Source of the DNA: a virus
Lineage: Duplodnaviria; Caudoviricetes
IMG/VR virus record: IMGVR_UViG_3300032373_000013
Location: 1-53,778 of that record
Length of the DNA: 53,778 bases
Strand: one strand, 5' to 3'
In this document: piece by piece, positions 38,609 through 53,602 of the stretch
How the letters are laid out: each line of letters begins with the position of its first letter
How positions within the stretch are numbered: position 1 is the first letter of the stretch
Position numbers and translations under genes: made by a program
Notes under the pieces: model-generated
Seen by the model: the letters and a program-made list of their open reading frames with translations, nothing else
Databases searched by the model: none
Told to the model about the DNA's origin: nothing

Positions 38609-38684
38609 TGGCGTAGACGGAGGGACTCGAACCCCCAACCGCTCCGTTAACAGCGGAGCGCTCTGCCAGTTGAGCTACGTCTAC
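38609..38684 (-). tRNA. trnN: tRNA-Asn(GTT)
   Basis: 76 nt: acceptor GTAGACG/CGTCTAC, D arm GCTC/GAGC, anticodon arm CTCCG-CTGTTAA-CGGAG, TTCGAGT loop, G73, encoded CCA. Confidence 0.96.
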
Positions 38685-43734: not shown

Positions 43735-43970
43735 AGCGACACCTCCGACGCGAGCTGGAGGAGGATGAACAGCGTCGCTTCGATCGCGACCAGAAGCGCA
43801 GCGCCGATCAGCGCCGCCGCAGCGAGAATGCAGACGTCCCCGAAGGTCAGTCCACGTCGCGCGTTACTGGAGTCGCCCGACTGTAACAGCGCCCACGAAG
43901 GCGCAGCCGTTCGCGCACTTTGCGCAACGGCGGTGGGGGCGGTAGCCGCCCCGGAGGAGGGTTTGAGCAT
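43731..43970 (-). CDS. Small membrane protein, first gene of the leftward arm
   Basis: C-terminal hydrophobic helix. Confidence 0.5.
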   Translation of the reverse strand: MLKPSSGAATAPTAVAQSARTAAPSWALLQSGDSSNARRGLTFGDVCILAAAALIGAALLVAIEATLFILLQLASEVSL

Positions 43971-44348
43971 AGGTCATCACGTAGTAGTGCCCGAGTGATT
44001 AGCTCGAGCGGACACCCACACCTTCGGCTGCGGGGCTTCCGCAGTCAACGTCAATCCCGAAAATGCGGGAGAGTTGCGCACGTCGTTACTACCCTGCGCG
44101 GCACGCGGGGCTGGACCGAGCATTGGTCACACGGGTCCCGCGAGGGCTTCGGTCCGGCTAGAACCCCCATCGCGCCGTTGAAGCGGGGCTGATTACCCCG
44201 TGGAGGGGCGGTGGGGGCGACGGCTTCGGTTGCAATTCGGTGCTGCTCAGGTCGAGTCGAGTGCAGCTACGGGCTACATTTCTACCCACCGCTAGGTCGA
44301 TGGTTGATGCAGACTGGAGCGCACTGGCAGACCAAGTGGCCCCCGACG

Positions 44349-44594
44349 ATGAATGAACTTGACGACATGAAGCGCGTCTTCGACGCCCACCGGGCGGAGT
44401 GGATCGAGCAAGGCCGAACGGGCCAGTGGGCGCTGATCGGACCGGACGGCCCGGTTGACTTCTTCGTTGAGTACGTCGAGATCGTCAAAGCTGCCGCTCG
44501 ACTGTTTGGCAATGGCCCCTGCCTGATCCAGCAAGTGCTCCCTGAGGATCCCATCGAGATCATTCAGCGCGTGGACTTCAGCGCGTTCGCGTGA
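44349..44594 (+). CDS. DUF5678-like small protein
   Basis: Likely ATG 44349; F..HR.EW....GQWALI....V.FF..Y.E....A...FG..P.LI.QV pattern. Confidence 0.7.
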   Translation: MNELDDMKRVFDAHRAEWIEQGRTGQWALIGPDGPVDFFVEYVEIVKAAARLFGNGPCLIQQVLPEDPIEIIQRVDFSAFA

Positions 44595-45112
44595 CCGGAA
44601 ACCCTCAGCAGCGCCGATTGGGTGGAAAGAGGGGCGGCAAGGGTAAGAAGCCCCCCAAGGTGCCCGACGCTCTCAGGATCGGCGGAAAGATCGAGAATGA
44701 CGCGTGCTCGATCAAGCTCCACATCTTCAACCCGCTCGAGGCTGGGGGCGTGAAGGGCCAGCAGCCGCCTCGACTCTTCAAGGTCAAGGCCATCATCGAC
44801 ACGGGGGCGACCTCGACGACGATCAGCGCTCGTTTGGCTCAAAAGATCGGCATCACCGGACACACCCGTATCCGTGTGGGGACTGCCGCTGGCGAGGTCG
44901 ATGGTTGGCAGGCACCGGTCGGTATCGCGTTCCTCGACCTCGAGACAGGGCGGACCGTCTCGCGCGTGCAGCCGATGGCGATCATGCCGATGCACGACGA
45001 CGTCCTATTCGGCATGTCGGACATCGCGCAGGGACGGCTCGTGGTGAACGGTGAGGCTGGCGAATGGAAGTGGATCTTGCCCGGCGGCAGTGTCGGCAAC
45101 CCGAAACCGTAG
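44591..45112 (+). CDS. Retropepsin-like (clan AA) aspartyl protease
   Basis: AIIDTGATSTTIS catalytic motif, TAAG flap, DVLFGMSDI; GTGA-coupled to the upstream gene. Confidence 0.88.
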   Translation: MTGNPQQRRLGGKRGGKGKKPPKVPDALRIGGKIENDACSIKLHIFNPLEAGGVKGQQPPRLFKVKAIIDTGATSTTISARLAQKIGITGHTRIRVGTAAGEVDGWQAPVGIAFLDLETGRTVSRVQPMAIMPMHDDVLFGMSDIAQGRLVVNGEAGEWKWILPGGSVGNPKP

Positions 45113-45331
45113 TCACGAGAAGCGGCCGACGATGAGCGGCCCCCAGCGCGCGATGCGCCGAGGGCCTGGGCGTTCGGGAAGAACGGCGAGCGGCGGTTGA
45201 CGCCACCGCACGCAGCGCCCAGATGAGAGGCGCCCCCGCTTGAAGTCTGCCGAACCACGCCAGTGAACGTCACGGTTTCGACGTAAGCGTGTAGCGTGAG
45301 GCGGCACCCAAACTCTCACGAAGCGCCTGCC

Positions 45332-45838
45332 ATGGTTCGACCCCTTGCTATCGCGTGCCTCCTTCTGGCGGCGTGCACTACGACTGGTTCCGTTCTCGAG
45401 ATCGGCCGCGATACCTTCACGGTGTCGGGTCGAAGTGAGTGGGGTTCAGGCAAGGCGCGAAGCGCGGCGATCAACGCCGCCAACCGATACGCCGCGGAGC
45501 GGGGGATGCGTATGAAGGTCGTGACGATGCAGCCCGGGTGGGACCGTGACGCTCTCGGGGATCGGTGGTACACGATGGATCTAACCTTTCGTGTGATCCC
45601 GCAGGATGACCCCGAGTATCAAACGCGTCCAAACCTCATCCCGAGCCAGCGGACGGTGATTACGCACGAGAACGCGCCTCCTGCGGCGCCGCCACAGGCT
45701 GCTCAATCGACCCCGAAGCCTGGAGGGGATGTTGACGCCTACCTCCGGGGACTACTGGAGCGCGGTGAGATCACTCCAGAGCAGTACGGGCGCCTCGTTG
45801 CCGAGCGCCTCGGTGTGACGGGCGACGACGGCGAATAG
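45332..45838 (+). CDS. Lipoprotein with C-terminal SHOCT-like motif
   Basis: MVRPLAIACLLLAA|C lipobox; IGRDTFTVS; LLERGEITPEQY. Confidence 0.75.
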   Translation: MVRPLAIACLLLAACTTTGSVLEIGRDTFTVSGRSEWGSGKARSAAINAANRYAAERGMRMKVVTMQPGWDRDALGDRWYTMDLTFRVIPQDDPEYQTRPNLIPSQRTVITHENAPPAAPPQAAQSTPKPGGDVDAYLRGLLERGEITPEQYGRLVAERLGVTGDDGE

Positions 45839-46054
45839 GCGTCCGCGAGGTTTCCTCCGAAAACCGTGACGGGTCGTCGCAGGCCATACGTTCGGCTCGG
45901 TGCCCCCGGGTAGACGGGCCGCGGCGCTCCCGTGGAGAGACGACGCCGCGGCCCTAGTGGCATTCCTAGGAATGGCGACGAACGTGTGAGACCGCCGCCG
46001 CAAGCGTCCAATGAAAGGCGCCTCCGCGCCAATTGTTCCACTTGTGCTCATACC

Positions 46055-46079
46055 TGGAAAGATAAGCACGGAGTATCTA
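46055..46079. promoter_or_regulatory. Repeated quasi-palindromic site, copy A: TGGAAAGATAAGCACG-gag-TATCTA
   Basis: 22/25 identical to 52250-52274; AGATA...TATCT arms; about 40 bp upstream of ORF 46117. Confidence 0.7.
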
Positions 46080-46116
46080 CTCCCCAGGAGCGCAAACAGT
46101 CGGTATCACCAGGCTT

Positions 46117-46812
46117 GTGATGGATCACGAATGCAACATGCCACTGTCGGGTCTGTTCACAGAGGATCGCCAGCTACTTAGGCTGGCTGCCGGAGACCCG
46201 GTGCGGGCCCTTGCGTACATCGACTCGGTGCGGTGGGTAGAGGGCGCTGATTGCCCCTCGTGCGGCAGCGAGGACACCTACGCCATTACCGGCCGGAGTG
46301 GGACGGCGCGCAAGACGGTGGCATGTCGAACCTGTCGACACCAGTTTGGATGGCGAATTGCGACCCCATTCGCCGGAACGCGCGTTCAGCCGGAGCACGT
46401 CCTATACGCCGTTGCGGGTCTCCTCGATGGGGACCGACCCGAAGTTGTCGCGGTAGACGTAGAGCGCGAGTTTGGCTGTGGGGTGCGTATGGCGCGACTG
46501 GTCCTGAATCGTGTCCTCATGCTCCGCGCAAGCCTCAATGGCCTTGGAGCGGACGACGAAATCGACCAGAAGGAAGTCGTACGGTGGCTGCCGGTGGCTG
46601 CGATTGCAGCAACTGCGACCATCCTCGTTTGCACTGCGTTCTTCGCGCCGAGCGCCCGCGCCGTAAACGAGCTTAATACGCACTGGACTTTCAACGGCGA
46701 CACCATGTCCCATCGAACCATCGCGTTCGTAGAGGAGTCATACTGGGACCTCACGCGCCGCCACGCTCGCGAGGTGGCGCAGATCAAGGGCCACCTCAAC
46801 AGCAGAGATTAG
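46117..46812 (+). CDS. IS1595-transposase-like Zn-ribbon/HTH fused to a TM helix and an unrecognised C-terminal domain (no DDE domain)
   Basis: ALAYIDSVRW..G..CPSCG...CRTCRHQF...TPFAGTR...VEREFG....ARLVLNRV, then WLPVAAIAATATILVCTAFFA. Confidence 0.78.
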   Translation: MMDHECNMPLSGLFTEDRQLLRLAAGDPVRALAYIDSVRWVEGADCPSCGSEDTYAITGRSGTARKTVACRTCRHQFGWRIATPFAGTRVQPEHVLYAVAGLLDGDRPEVVAVDVEREFGCGVRMARLVLNRVLMLRASLNGLGADDEIDQKEVVRWLPVAAIAATATILVCTAFFAPSARAVNELNTHWTFNGDTMSHRTIAFVEESYWDLTRRHAREVAQIKGHLNSRD

Positions 46813-46814
46813 TC

Positions 46815-47099
46815 ATGTCTGGAGTCCTCTCCACGCAATTCGACTGCAACGGAACACGTACCACATGGGCAACCGCTCGGGGGAAGAACCCCCTAGAGCC
46901 CATTCTTGACTTTGCCGACCGTCACAGCGACGAAGTGAAGGACGCCAAGCTCGATTGCAGCAGCAACGTCATCGCGCTCCCGTCGATCACCTCAACGTGG
47001 GAGAGCGACATCGGCACGACGACGTATGGCTCGGATGACGGTCAAGCACAGCACGATTTGGACGTCATCGAGATCCAGAAGGAAATTCCCCCTGCGTAG
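46815..47099 (+). CDS. Small acidic protein paralogous to the C-terminal domain of ORF 46117
   Basis: Starts 2 bp after the upstream stop; shares LxT..NG....T...E...D...RH..EV...K. Confidence 0.7.
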   Translation: MSGVLSTQFDCNGTRTTWATARGKNPLEPILDFADRHSDEVKDAKLDCSSNVIALPSITSTWESDIGTTTYGSDDGQAQHDLDVIEIQKEIPPA

Positions 47100-47325
47100 C
47101 TAACTCAGTGACGGGTAGGTGTTTGAGCCTCGCGCGATCCCCCGTTGATCAAGGATTTGCGCTACGGCGGGTAGCGTGCCCGTGCGCCGCTTTCTACGTT
47201 GCGGATGTCGAGACCTACTCGGAGTGAGATCCGACTCGGCGTCCAATGAAAACCGCTCTGCCCAAAGCGGCAGCCCCGTATCGCACGGGTTCTCCGCACT
47301 CCGACCGTCGTCGGCCCACGCTCGC

Positions 47326-47586
47326 ATGAGTGGGGTCGACGGCAACTCGTCTGCGCCCGAGGCGGCGACGATCGACGCGAAAGAGATCGCGTCCATCATC
47401 GGTATGACCGTGGCGACCGTCCGCGAGTGGCGGAAGCGCACGTGGATTCGAGAGCCGATCGACCGTCCGGCGAAGGGGTTCGCGTGGTGGCGCGTCGAAA
47501 TCTACGAGGACCTTGGCCGCCGTGGGTATGGACCGTGGGCGCACAAGTACGCGCCTAGTTCATCTGACCAGCGGGGGACGTCATGA
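47326..47586 (+). CDS. Excisionase/AlpA-like HTH protein
   Basis: IDAKEIASIIGMTVATVREWRKR...P; ATGA overlap with the integrase. Confidence 0.7.
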   Translation: MSGVDGNSSAPEAATIDAKEIASIIGMTVATVREWRKRTWIREPIDRPAKGFAWWRVEIYEDLGRRGYGPWAHKYAPSSSDQRGTS

Positions 47587-48935
47587 CTCCTCCGCGCGGG
47601 CTCGATCAGGGCATCCTGAAGAAGGTCAACGGGGTATGGATCTTCACATACACCGCCATCGACAAGGCTGGAAAGCGTTCGCGCGGCTCTCACACCCTCG
47701 GGCCGTCTAAGCGCATCGCTGAGGCCGAAGCCAGGAAGCTGATCGATAAGCGCAACGAGCGCCTGTACGGAGTCGGTCCCGACGAGCGGCCTAACGAACC
47801 GTGGCGCCCGTGGCTTGAGCGTTGGCGCACTTCCTATGCCAAGGAGCGCGGCGATCTCAATGCACGCAGGTCCGCGGCACGCCTGGAGCGTGTGCTCGAT
47901 GGAGTCGACGCCGTCAGCTTCGGCGACATAACGATCGGAGCGGTGACGCTCTACCTGGACGAGCTGAGCGATCGTTTCAGCGCCTCCACCGTGAACGACT
48001 ACATCGCGAGTCTCCGCGTGTTCCTCTCATGGTGCGTGCAGCGCGAGGTCATCCCCGAGGAGAACGCAATCCGGCCGAAGTACCTCAGCGTGAGCGGTGC
48101 TCTCGAGCGTCCTGAGTTCACAGAAGAGCAGGTTGCAGCGATCTTCGCCGCTGGACGGGCGCGAGACGCTGCGGCTCGGCGGAACTGGGGCGCGTTTGGC
48201 TCCGGCAGTCATGGCCGACTGAAGTACGCGCAGCCGTTCCCACGGATGCACACGATCGAGTTCCTAACGCTGACCATCAGTCGGCCGGGGGCCGCGCGGC
48301 AGGTGCGAAACTGCGATGTCTACCGTGAGCCGGAGAAGCGCTTCGTGCACTTCCGCGCGGCGACGATGAAGGCGAAGAACGACGTCTACGTGCCGATTGA
48401 GGGAGCGCTCGAAGAGCTGATCGATCGCATCGACGCGACCCACCTTGAGATCACTGGGCGCGTAGGGCGCCCGGAGGAGACTCTGCTCCGCTCACCGGCG
48501 GGTCTCCCGTGGACGAAGAACTCCCATCCGCTCGTGAAGTGGTTCCAGTCCGCGATGAAGGACGCGGGGATCGAGAAGGAGGTCCCGGGGTTCAAGGATC
48601 GCGACGTGTACTGCCTTCGCGGCTTTGGCGTGACGCGGATGTTGCGTGCCACACGCGATCCCGTGCTCGTGGCGAAGATCGGCGGCTGGACGGACCCGAA
48701 GGTCATGCTGAGGCACTACGAGAAGCTGAACCTCGGTGACACACGCGAAGCCATCGGCGCGATGCAGTTGCCGACGGGAATCACGGAACAAATCGCTGGC
48801 GAGGCTCCGGACGCCGGGTCGGGAGGCGCACGCGCACCCCCTAAGTTCTGCCGACGTCTCGGCTTGCGACGGCGGTTGCACTCACGGCGCAGCATGACAA
48901 GTGCCGAGAGAATATCTCCTTCGCCTCCCCATTGA
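47583..48935 (+). CDS. int: Tyrosine recombinase (integrase)
   Basis: SASTVNDYIASLRVFLSW core-binding region; catalytic R (SRPG), K (MKAK), YCLR, GGW...RHY. Confidence 0.9.
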   Translation: MTPPRGLDQGILKKVNGVWIFTYTAIDKAGKRSRGSHTLGPSKRIAEAEARKLIDKRNERLYGVGPDERPNEPWRPWLERWRTSYAKERGDLNARRSAARLERVLDGVDAVSFGDITIGAVTLYLDELSDRFSASTVNDYIASLRVFLSWCVQREVIPEENAIRPKYLSVSGALERPEFTEEQVAAIFAAGRARDAAARRNWGAFGSGSHGRLKYAQPFPRMHTIEFLTLTISRPGAARQVRNCDVYREPEKRFVHFRAATMKAKNDVYVPIEGALEELIDRIDATHLEITGRVGRPEETLLRSPAGLPWTKNSHPLVKWFQSAMKDAGIEKEVPGFKDRDVYCLRGFGVTRMLRATRDPVLVAKIGGWTDPKVMLRHYEKLNLGDTREAIGAMQLPTGITEQIAGEAPDAGSGGARAPPKFCRRLGLRRRLHSRRSMTSAERISPSPPH

Positions 48936-49191
48936 CCTCCTAGCTATGTCAATGCGAGACAGAGGTAAACCGCGCCATGTCGAGGTAAGTGAAGCGGAAC
49001 GTCGCCATACCGCGGCGTTTAGGTCGGACCGGACAGCGCTAAACCGCTGCATCTAGATCGACGTCGATGCAAACGCCTGTGAGCGTTTCAACGAACAAAT
49101 CGGCCTGAGACCAGGTCGCCACCGCACCGCGTGACTGGGGCCGCACCCCTAGTCGCGCACCCCACACCACGTGCCATCCCGAGGGGAAGGT

Positions 49192-49683
49192 ATGCCCACA
49201 AAGAAGGACAAGAAAAAGGACCGAAAGCTCCGCCAGGCCGCGCGGCTCTACCGCCAGGCGGAGATCACTCTCGAAGAGGCGGCGCAGCTCTGCGGCGTCA
49301 AGCCCTCGACGCTGCATAAGTCAATGGCGGACGGGGGGGAGCAGCTCCGCCCGCGCGGATGGACGCGGAAGCTAACCGACGCCGACGAGAAGGAGATCCT
49401 CAAGCTCTCGCGAGCCGGGAAGACCGTCGCTGAGATCGCCGAGGCTACGGGCTGGGCGTCGTCCACGATCAGCCGCGTTCGCTCGCGCCATGGATTCGAG
49501 CGTCCCAAGTCGCGGACGCGGATCTACGACGCCGACGGGGAGCTTCTCAAGAAGCGGTGCCCTGCGTGTGACCGTCTCCGCCTGGCGAAGTTCTGGGCGA
49601 TGAACGCGGCGTCGAGTGACGGGCGTCAGGGCTACTGCAAGAGCTGCACGAAGGAGCGCAGGGACGCGGGGAGGGCGGCGTGA
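49192..49683 (+). CDS. HTH DNA-binding protein with C-terminal Zn finger
   Basis: Two HTH-like segments (LEEAAQLCGVKPSTL; VAEIAEATGWASSTISR); CPAC...CKSC. Confidence 0.75.
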   Translation: MPTKKDKKKDRKLRQAARLYRQAEITLEEAAQLCGVKPSTLHKSMADGGEQLRPRGWTRKLTDADEKEILKLSRAGKTVAEIAEATGWASSTISRVRSRHGFERPKSRTRIYDADGELLKKRCPACDRLRLAKFWAMNAASSDGRQGYCKSCTKERRDAGRAA

Positions 49684-52561: not shown

Positions 52562-53602
52562 GTGAGCACCTGCTCCTGCGCCTCCAAGGGCCGCCCAGAG
52601 TGGTTCCCGTTCCACGCGGCGGACTTCCTGAATTCAGACACCTGCGCCGATGTGAACGGCGTGGAGCGCGCCCTCTACGCGCTGATGCTCGTCCTGGCCT
52701 GGAATGGCCCCGGGCTCCCCGCGGACCGCAGACGCCTCGCGAACCGCCTCGGTGTGGACCGCGAGCAGGTGGACGACCTCCTCGATGGCCCAGTCGGCGA
52801 GAACTGGTTCGAGTGCTGTGGAAAGCTCTGGAACGAGCGCATGGAGGAGCAGCGGGTGAAGGCTGAAGCGCGCTCCAAAGCGGGGGCGAAAGGGGGCAAA
52901 GCGAGCGCCGAAAAGCGCCGTCAGAAGGCTTCCAGGAAAGCCTCGGATCCAACGACCGTTCAACGACCGTTTAGAACGACCGTTGAACGACCGTTGAACG
53001 ATCGTTTAGAACGACCGTTGAACGACCGTTCAACGACCGTTGAACGACCGTTCGAACAGATAAGAGGAGAGGAGATAAGAGAAGAGACACTCCCTAGCGG
53101 GAGTGTAGGCGCGCACGCGCCCGCGGAAGGCCAATCCAAGCTCGGGAAGGCACTGGGGGAGGCGCTGGAGCCGATACCGCCCGAGGCCGAGGATGCGCTA
53201 CGGCTCTGGGCCGAGCACCTGACCGAGCGTGTCGGGGCGTCGAGGGGCGTCGCGTACTGGCGTGGCGAACTCAAATCCGCAGGACGCGACCCAGCGGTGT
53301 ACGCCCAGCGTGTGGCGTTCTCGATCTCGAAGGACGCGAAGTCCGTGCTGGCGCCGAAGTCGGACGAGCTAGCGGCGTTCCTCGGCGAGCAGGATTCCAC
53401 GGCACTCGCGGCGCCGGGCACAGGCGGCGTCGAAGCCAAGCATCTCCCGTTCAACGCGAAGTCGGACATCTGGGAGGCCAAGCAACGCGAGGATCGCCGA
53501 CGTCGCCTAGCGGCAATCGACGCCGCCGAAGCCGCTGCGGCCGAGCCGCGCCTCGTCAACGTCGAGCCTCCCCGTCCACGTCTCGCCGGGGGTGACCGCT
53601 GA
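52562..53602 (+). CDS. Replication initiator, DUF1376/YdaU-type N-terminus (lambda O analogue)
   Basis: PEWFPFHAADFL...ERALY..ML..AW...LP....LA...KLWNERM; AGGAG RBS; internal iterons. Confidence 0.85.
   Translation: MSTCSCASKGRPEWFPFHAADFLNSDTCADVNGVERALYALMLVLAWNGPGLPADRRRLANRLGVDREQVDDLLDGPVGENWFECCGKLWNERMEEQRVKAEARSKAGAKGGKASAEKRRQKASRKASDPTTVQRPFRTTVERPLNDRLERPLNDRSTTVERPFEQIRGEEIREETLPSGSVGAHAPAEGQSKLGKALGEALEPIPPEAEDALRLWAEHLTERVGASRGVAYWRGELKSAGRDPAVYAQRVAFSISKDAKSVLAPKSDELAAFLGEQDSTALAAPGTGGVEAKHLPFNAKSDIWEAKQREDRRRRLAAIDAAEAAAAEPRLVNVEPPRPRLAGGDR
52951..53052. repeat. Nine iterons AACGA(C/T)CGTT; probable replication origin
   Basis: Copies at 52951, 52962, 52975, 52986, 52997, 53010, 53021, 53032 and 53043, followed by a purine-rich tract. 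Confidence 0.85.

Follow-up and report, generated by a model that had tools for sequence, protein, structure and literature searches.

Transposases of the IS1595 family of insertion sequences (ISs) combine an N-terminal module, made of a zinc ribbon (Pfam PF12760) and a three-helix helix-turn-helix (HTH) domain, with a catalytic DDE domain (PF12762); the N-terminal module presumably recognises the ends of the element. In ICEBs1 (immR-immA-int) an immunity regulator is co-transcribed with the integrase. Bitopic membrane regulators include TcpP/TcpH and CadC as well as ToxR/ToxS. The last is presented in PMC7496328 as a bitopic DNA-binding regulator with a co-encoded partner. Here we describe gene A, whose product carries an IS1595-type N-terminal module on a membrane anchor. 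The gene lies in a 53,778-bp viral record of IMG/VR (IMGVR_UViG_3300032373_000013; classed as linear and, by the CheckV estimate, 53% complete), which was analysed at its whole length and is called the window below. The gene A family is real, conserved and not previously described.

The frame of gene A is intact, with zero internal stops. Its product is composed, in this order, of an IS1595-type zinc ribbon, an HTH, a linker, a transmembrane (TM) helix and a C-terminal beta-beta-alpha domain (pLDDT, predicted local distance difference test; all features on the plus strand):

46117..46812, plus strand: gene A, bitopic membrane protein of 231 aa; GTG start, alternative ATG at 46120
46231..46350, plus strand: zinc ribbon, residues 39-78, RW..G..CPxCG...CxxC..QF
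46390..46536, plus strand: three-helix HTH-like bundle, residues 92-140, homologous to the IS1595 transposase HTH, third helix diverged
46537..46584, plus strand: acidic flexible linker, residues 141-156, pLDDT 60-69
46585..46650, plus strand: TM helix, residues 157-178, by hydropathy (model helix 151-176), predicted N-in/C-out
46663..46809, plus strand: C-terminal domain (the tail), residues 183-231, 49 aa, beta-hairpin plus helix

The transposase origin of the N-terminal half is evident from several comparisons. Residues 31-76 match Pfam Zn_ribbon_IS1595 (PF12760) with an E-value of 1.5e-9 (38.1 bits against a cut-off of 25.4), IS1595-type proteins align to residues ~20-135 in HMMER searches, and phrog_25593 aligns positions 31-150 of its 344-position profile with residues 35-154 (E-value 2.7e-5). 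The AlphaFold2 model of gene A, built on the family alignment (mean pLDDT 87.4), has helices at residues 10-39, the zinc ribbon at 54-77 and three helices at 92-140 in this half of the protein; structural neighbours found in the Atlas span residues 15-160 with TM-scores of 0.45-0.49. The 32-member family alignment shows no variation at W40, C46, C49 and C70 and at least 90% conservation at C73.

The catalytic half of the transposase is absent. Pfam gives no match to a DDE domain in the gene A protein, and DDE_Tnp_IS1595 (PF12762), searched for across the whole window in six-frame translation, gave no match at an E-value of ≤1. No convincing pair of IS-type inverted repeats surrounds gene A; the best candidate (19 nt, 79%) lies inside neighbouring coding sequence. 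An earlier, sequence-only reading of the window had proposed just such an intact IS1595 N-terminus without a DDE domain, fused to a membrane anchor and with neither catalytic remnant nor flanking IS ends. The PF12760 match above the cut-off, the IS1595-type HTH, the TM helix and the two negative searches bear it out. Its coordinates are also exact: the TM helix starts at residue 157 (46585), an A-R-A motif occupies residues 180-182 (46654-46662) and a 49-aa tail follows at 183-231. In comparison with IS1595-family transposases, gene A has a homologous zinc ribbon (RW..G..CPxCG...CxxC..QF..GT) and three-helix HTH, but neither the DDE domain nor terminal inverted repeats; its C-terminal half consists instead of the linker, the TM helix and a new domain, its recognition helix has diverged and its family forms a separate clade. 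Lacking the catalytic domain and the IS ends, gene A thus falls outside the IS1595 transposases.

When 1.84 billion representatives were searched exhaustively with HMMER, 299 matches had an E-value of ≤1e-3, and 150 of them were listed. Among the 149 other matches listed, at least 31 representatives have the same zinc ribbon, HTH, variable linker, TM helix and tail of ~45 aa as gene A, and these 31 share 19-31% identity with its protein. PF12760 is matched by 32 out of 32 family members. Mean pairwise identity is 0.38 in the zinc ribbon, 0.27 in the tail, 0.25 in the HTH, 0.22 in the TM helix and 0.17 in both the linker and the post-TM segment; the tail is therefore conserved on a par with the HTH (0.27 versus 0.25). 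A maximum-likelihood tree of the N-terminal domain (145 rows, 129 columns; a quick IQ-TREE search that leaves the deeper branching unresolved) omits five of the 150 listed matches, for which the domain match was missing or covered fewer than 85 profile positions, and adds cluster member P0151. In this tree 32 rows with TM helix and tail, together with one truncated row, fall on one side of a branch with a Shimodaira-Hasegawa-like approximate likelihood ratio test (SH-aLRT) value of 98, set apart from 105 rows of IS1595 transposases and short N-terminal proteins. Since the N-terminal domains form a single clade, the fusion arose once and diversified afterwards. The sequence-only reading had named a unique fusion with an unconserved tail as the outcome that would overturn it; with at least 31 other representatives, a conserved tail and a single origin, the opposite was found.

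Of the searches for members, the exhaustive HMMER search alone brought the family to light. A word-indexed protein search with gene A returned only its own protein, and with the family profile three proteins. There was no match to gene A among 50,697 phage records (tblastn), and none in viral-contig scans with the gene A protein, with P0002 or with the B alignment. Three loci returned by a viral-contig scan with another family alignment (A3) proved to be ordinary IS1595 transposases and were rejected as family members. A literature search, supplements aside, found no description of such a protein; the sequence-only reading likewise knew of none described in phages.

Proteins with the IS1595 N-terminal module and without the DDE domain exist outside this family. 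They include Atlas clusters of ribbon-only proteins with 127-179 aa, some of them commonest in Uroviricota, and phrog_25593; eight of ten long HMMER matches checked also lack PF12762, and three of these eight have two tandem ribbons. No literature description of such proteins was found either, supplements aside. Gene A resembles them in that the DNA-binding module is reused, phages included, without the transposase domain. It differs from those found in that it alone has a TM helix, a tail domain and a paralogous partner. The proteins with tandem Zn_ribbon_IS1595 modules (P0007, P0132 and P0019, ~380 aa, no DDE domain) look like another exaptation; P0007 and P0132 are placed nearest to the TM-tail clade, and P0019 among the other rows.

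The linker varies in length from 0 to ~100 residues over the family. The hydrophobic core of the gene A helix has a mean Kyte-Doolittle value of 2.12 across 19 residues. In 27 of the 32 members K+R is higher on the N-side of the TM helix than on the C-side (two ties, three reversed), an excess that predicts an N-in/C-out orientation with an external tail. The tail is modelled as a beta-hairpin (185-202) and a helix (209-227), with block mean pLDDT of 83-97 across most of its length. Its family motif is W..G......T.R..GES...W..RH...V......PPD; gene A aligns with the family over its full length, and conservation reaches at least 90% at W190, E207 and R215 of the tail. Of the 35 Pfam families matched by the 32 members, 25 are shown, and none of these covers the tail, and the best hit of the tail and B domain against PDB sequences has an E-value of 0.28.

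The tail domain also occurs outside gene A. A domain-only profile found it in 11 of 401 Planctomycetota genomes: as two tandem copies in proteins of ~217-238 aa with a Sec-type signal peptide (genomes G248, G216 and G308), in a 109-aa N-terminally anchored protein of a phage-like region (G399), and in small leaderless proteins with one or two copies that resemble the product of gene B, described below. The exported forms fit an external tail in gene A. The tail defines a new small beta-beta-alpha domain that, judging by these sequences, occurs anchored, secreted and free. As a side observation, the two-copy proteins with signal peptides (L059 4484-5137 in G248, L066 in G216, L070 in G308) have host-like codon usage, with a GC content at third codon positions (GC3) of 0.90 in G248.

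The A-R-A motif just past the TM helix had been read as a possible signal-peptidase site. Although the members are Ala-rich, no more than 13 of 32 have an AxA triplet near the TM end, and its position varies. Without positional conservation, cleavage by signal peptidase is not indicated. Gene A is not an IS remnant and is probably not processed at A-R-A.

Directly downstream of gene A lies its partner:

46815..47099, plus strand: gene B, 94 aa, starting 2 nt past the gene A stop codon

Gene B has one clear and one degenerate copy of the gene A tail domain. It matches the tail part of the family profile (E-value 8.2e-4), and alignment of the tail profile with the B profile gives an hhalign probability of 98.3% and an E-value of 1.9e-14; by this profile evidence, gene B is a paralogue of the tail domain. 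B stands directly 3' of A in five out of five loci (the window, three copies in the Planctomycetota genome G001, and one in G588). The five B proteins have 45-95 aa with one or two domain copies, share the invariant residues C11, G13, T20, E28, D32, R36, H37, V41 and C48, and have neither a signal peptide nor a TM helix. The B start lies between at least 17 nt before and 2 nt after the A stop, and the frame of B relative to A is −1 in three loci and +1 in two. A fusion of A and B by frameshift or read-through was considered and rejected on the mixed frames and the overlapping or abutting start and stop codons, which point to translational coupling.

A complex of the gene A tail (178-231) with B (1-55) is predicted with an ipSAE of 0.67, against 0.00 for the best of three controls. 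The mark applied to such scores is reached by 58 of 80 solved complexes and by 2 of 110 mismatched pairs; for the present pair, predicted from alignments of our own, these counts apply only roughly. Between runs at least 93% of the contacts coincide, with a partner pLDDT of at least 82. In the predicted interface the second strand of the A tail (195-202) pairs with B residues 1-9 and the two helices pack together. The model supports a putative binding of B to the tail of gene A. In searches with B, the Atlas gave no usable match, and a metagenome scan with the B alignment found one contig, identical to the G588 B gene.

The A-B pair is followed in the window by genes for excision and integration:

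47326..47586, plus strand: excisionase-like HTH gene, phrog_66 'excisionase and transcriptional regulator', E-value 3.5e-4 (open frame from 47176, likely ATG 47326)
47583..48935, plus strand: tyrosine integrase, phrog_1 integrase with an E-value of 2.1e-24, weak match to Pfam Phage_integrase

Four of the five loci, namely the window and those of G001, have A, B, an HTH_17/excisionase-like gene and a tyrosine integrase in this order on one strand; at the G588 locus A-B runs divergently from an adjoining HTH_17-integrase pair. The excisionase-like counterparts at the other loci match Pfam HTH_17. When eight window proteins of the region were used in tblastn searches, only A and B were recovered at all four other loci (the integrase was recovered in G588 too), so that the cassette is conserved and its surroundings are not. 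The A-B pair is bracketed by a direct repeat of 13 nt, GCGTCCAATGAAA, whose two copies are identical; a GC-rich hairpin comes after each:

46004..46030, plus strand: upstream copy of GCGTCCAATGAAA with its GC hairpin, 114 nt before gene A
47239..47271, plus strand: second copy of GCGTCCAATGAAA with its hairpin, between B and the excisionase-like gene

The repeat with its hairpin may be a regulatory element or mark a module boundary. On the minus strand both copies resemble intrinsic terminators; the second has an A>G change at 47250 in sequencing runs X2 and X3. In the spacer 3' of the integrase gene there is also a 26-nt direct repeat with 77% identity (48958-48983 and 49032-49057), a candidate for integrase arm sites or part of attP. 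A sigma-70 promoter scan gave 0 sites in 43800-49300.

Independent copies of the cassette were found in public sequencing runs, among which no RNA run carrying the sequence was found. Three runs of one other study (X2, X3 and X4, labelled as aquatic metagenome) yielded contigs with pieces of 45843-47344 that have 0-6 differences from the window; run X1, possibly the source of the window itself, is kept apart from these. The contigs of X2-X4 have zero cover of 44962-45669 and 47617-48147, an absence to which we attach no meaning. The longest contig (1,414 nt, depth 5.18) has one difference in the 823 nt of A and B (46687 A>G, T191A) against five in the 245-nt spacer past B (Fisher p 0.003), the depth of these contigs being low enough that single differences may be errors. 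In the X2 and X3 contigs the excisionase-like gene begins differently (47344/47481), with 145 unlike letters in place of 136 nt, after which identity is ~78%. The pattern fits constraint on A and B and, apparently, a mosaic junction just downstream.

The family is rare. Full-length family profile matches occur in 1 of 401 genomes sampled across Planctomycetota, in 2 of 301 genomes of the order of G001 and in 2 of 174 genomes of its family; the remaining matches at phylum level are N-terminal only, mostly in frames of ~260-400 aa, as expected of ordinary IS1595 transposases. Gene A is a rare accessory gene. Public names were available for two of 20 family representatives looked up, both proteins of Planctomycetota metagenome-assembled genomes (MAGs) annotated as 'transposase'. 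From the loci at hand the family appears to be carried by prophages and integrative elements of Planctomycetota. This host range, the paralogous partner B and the linkage to excisionase-like and integrase genes go beyond what the sequence-only reading had noticed. G001 is a 6.4-Mb Planctomycetota MAG with three diverged A-B-HTH_17-integrase modules (L039, L040 and L041); GC3 is 0.70-0.83 in the modules and 0.89-0.98 in nearby host genes.

The window virus is a temperate phage, since an excisionase-like HTH protein and a tyrosine integrase stand among its recombination and replication genes, which include an Erf-like annealing protein, a RecE-like exonuclease, an HNH endonuclease, a RuvC-like resolvase and a primosomal protein. 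The G588 prophage, which has a copy of gene A, has eight genes in common with the window phage, which suggests a planctomycete as host. Two ORFs (open reading frames) lie upstream of gene A:

44591-45112, upstream of gene A: ORF of a clan AA (retropepsin-like) aspartic protease, Pfam gag-asp_proteas, E-value 2.1e-11
45296-45838, just upstream of gene A: lipoprotein-like ORF with an LLAAC lipobox

Neither is conserved at the four other loci (tblastn). Elsewhere in the window, ARAGORN and Rfam agree on a tRNA-Asn at 38609-38684 (minus strand). ARAGORN also calls an 89-nt tRNA-Pyl-like gene with anticodon CTA at 52957-53045 (minus strand), within the ORF 52562-53602, which scores below the gathering score of the Rfam tRNA model.

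What gene A does can be approached from the membrane regulators and from the genes beside it. Like the ToxR of ToxR/ToxS, it is predicted to bind DNA with a cytoplasmic head that a single TM helix connects to a small external domain, and the gene immediately 3' encodes a partner expected to bind the external domain. It differs in that the head is a zinc ribbon plus HTH where ToxR has an OmpR-type winged helix (the only Pfam families found in gene A are zinc-ribbon ones, with no match to Trans_reg_C), in that the external domain is unrelated, in that B is a paralogue of the external domain with neither anchor nor signal, and in that the pair is carried on prophages beside xis and int. Gene A is therefore outside the ToxR group on DNA-binding fold and partner anchoring, and shares its membrane topology by prediction. 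The likeness to ICEBs1 lies in the arrangement: a predicted DNA-binding protein and an accessory gene head a string with the integrase gene at the edge of the element. ImmR, however, is a soluble XRE-type repressor and ImmA a protease, whereas gene A is membrane-anchored and has no sequence relation to them. As for the zinc-binding anti-sigma factors (ZAS, zinc motif HxxxCxxC), zf-HC2 (PF13490) is absent from the 25 Pfam families shown (of 35 matched by the 32 members at an E-value of ≤0.1), and the sole anti-sigma family listed is CnrY, for one of 32 members (E-value 0.021). The family's best match among PDB sequences is the zinc ribbon of an RNA polymerase subunit (E-value 0.012).

We tentatively propose, at somewhat less than an even chance, that gene A is an exapted transposase DNA-binding module that, tethered to the membrane, regulates the lysogeny/integration module of its element as a one-component protein in the style of ToxR. 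The cytoplasmic head would bind DNA of the element, and the tail would set the state of the protein by pairing with itself or with B through beta-strand addition and helix packing. The sequence-only reading had also put forward a membrane-tethered one-component regulator, which is plausible. Its topological part is supported by the positive-inside bias and by the exported homologues of the tail; its DNA-binding part is weakened by a recognition helix without the transposase signature.

Several observations weigh against the regulator proposal. The signature YKtAWfm.hRIR of the transposases is gone from the third HTH helix of the family, and that helix is less basic (K+R 2.6 versus 3.4) and more acidic (D+E 1.3 versus 0.6) than in transposases; DNA binding by gene A is therefore plausible, possibly retargeted or lost. 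Structure searches returned no informative neighbour: Foldseek against the PDB gave no match at an E-value of ≤1e-3, and the best hit of VIA-align wide (2il5_A, Z 5.5, 48 aligned residues, root mean square deviation 2.3) is within noise. Synteny rests on five loci from three sources, with three loci from one genome. The 13-nt repeat has no counterpart in the three G001 loci, and no operator-like repeat is common to the loci. The G001 elements are not demonstrably phages, since 10 neighbouring ORFs tested there have no PHROG match, and may be non-phage integrative elements. Then, a passing complex score between paralogous domains may express a mere tendency to homodimerise, and a leaderless B and an external tail domain are not obviously matched in compartment. 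B could meet the tail in the cytoplasm, if the near-C-terminal TM helix enters the membrane only post-translationally, or it could do so after release at lysis; alternatively, the predicted complex could mirror tail-tail dimers only.

Four other explanations were weighed. Gene A could be a moron for superinfection exclusion or defence, its membrane-bound head capturing or blocking incoming phage or mobile DNA with B as modulator. We regard this as unlikely. In its favour, the prophage-edge position beside int is typical of moron and exclusion genes, the protein has a membrane anchor, accessory-looking genes precede it in the window (the clan AA aspartic protease and the lipoprotein-like ORF), and in the other-study contigs A and B are >99% identical beside a diverged downstream xis region, which suggests modular exchange. 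PADLOC, however, gave no match at an E-value of ≤0.01 to A, B or three upstream ORFs, bar one weak match of the protease, and we know of no exclusion protein with a DNA-binding head. Moreover, A-B heads a co-directional string with xis and int in four of the five loci, an arrangement that a regulator fits better. The same linkage, tight in all five loci though the integrases are too diverged for tblastn in three of four comparisons, could speak for a recombination accessory. Here the head would bind att- or arm-type DNA, in the manner in which the IS1595 module presumably recognises element ends, and tether to the membrane either the integration/excision complex or the excised circle, acting with the excisionase-like protein and the integrase and not as a transcription factor. 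No repeat is common to the A region and the int-proximal region at any locus, and no membrane requirement of tyrosine-recombinase reactions is known to us; we consider such a role rather improbable.

Lower still we place a receptor-ligand pair, in which B, released for example at lysis, would dock by beta-strand addition on the external A tail of neighbouring lysogens or infected cells and so switch the DNA-binding head, and with it excision or the lysis-lysogeny decision. Such a pair would be a counterpart of arbitrium signalling in Planctomycetota phages, based on a protein and acting at the membrane. It would agree with a small B directly 3' of a predicted sensor-regulator in a lysogeny module, with the predicted docking of B on the external domain, with two invariant Cys of B that would suit a disulfide in an extracytoplasmic protein, and with the export of homologous domains in other proteins. 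On the other hand, an export signal is absent from B at all five loci, there is no sign of B release or of outer-membrane uptake, and the predicted interface is equally explicable by homodimerisation of the domain; we hold it to be very unlikely. A decaying IS1595 copy, with the tail a functionless read-through of unrelated sequence, has next to no probability left. The name 'transposase' given to family members in public records speaks for it. The intact frame, the TM helix and tail motif retained by at least 31 other representatives at 19-31% identity, the single origin, the lack of both a DDE remnant and IS ends, the confident model of the tail (block mean pLDDT 83-97 over most of it) and the very few changes between two studies speak against it, and the conservation data refute it.

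The results define an unrecognised family that is publicly labelled 'transposase', in which a transposase DNA-binding module was exapted once and kept across deep divergence. PF12760 is counted as a transposase marker in PMC13639185, and the family is a caution for annotation pipelines for ISs and mobile elements that take it as such. Gene A is kept as what is predicted to be a membrane-tethered protein of temperate elements, in a two-gene A-B cassette tied to excision and integration genes. Lysogeny control by this arrangement may be new. If the regulator reading is true, gene A would be the first membrane-bound regulator of phage lysogeny or excision that we are aware of, and it would offer an entry to lysogeny control in Planctomycetota, whose phages are, to our knowledge, almost unstudied.

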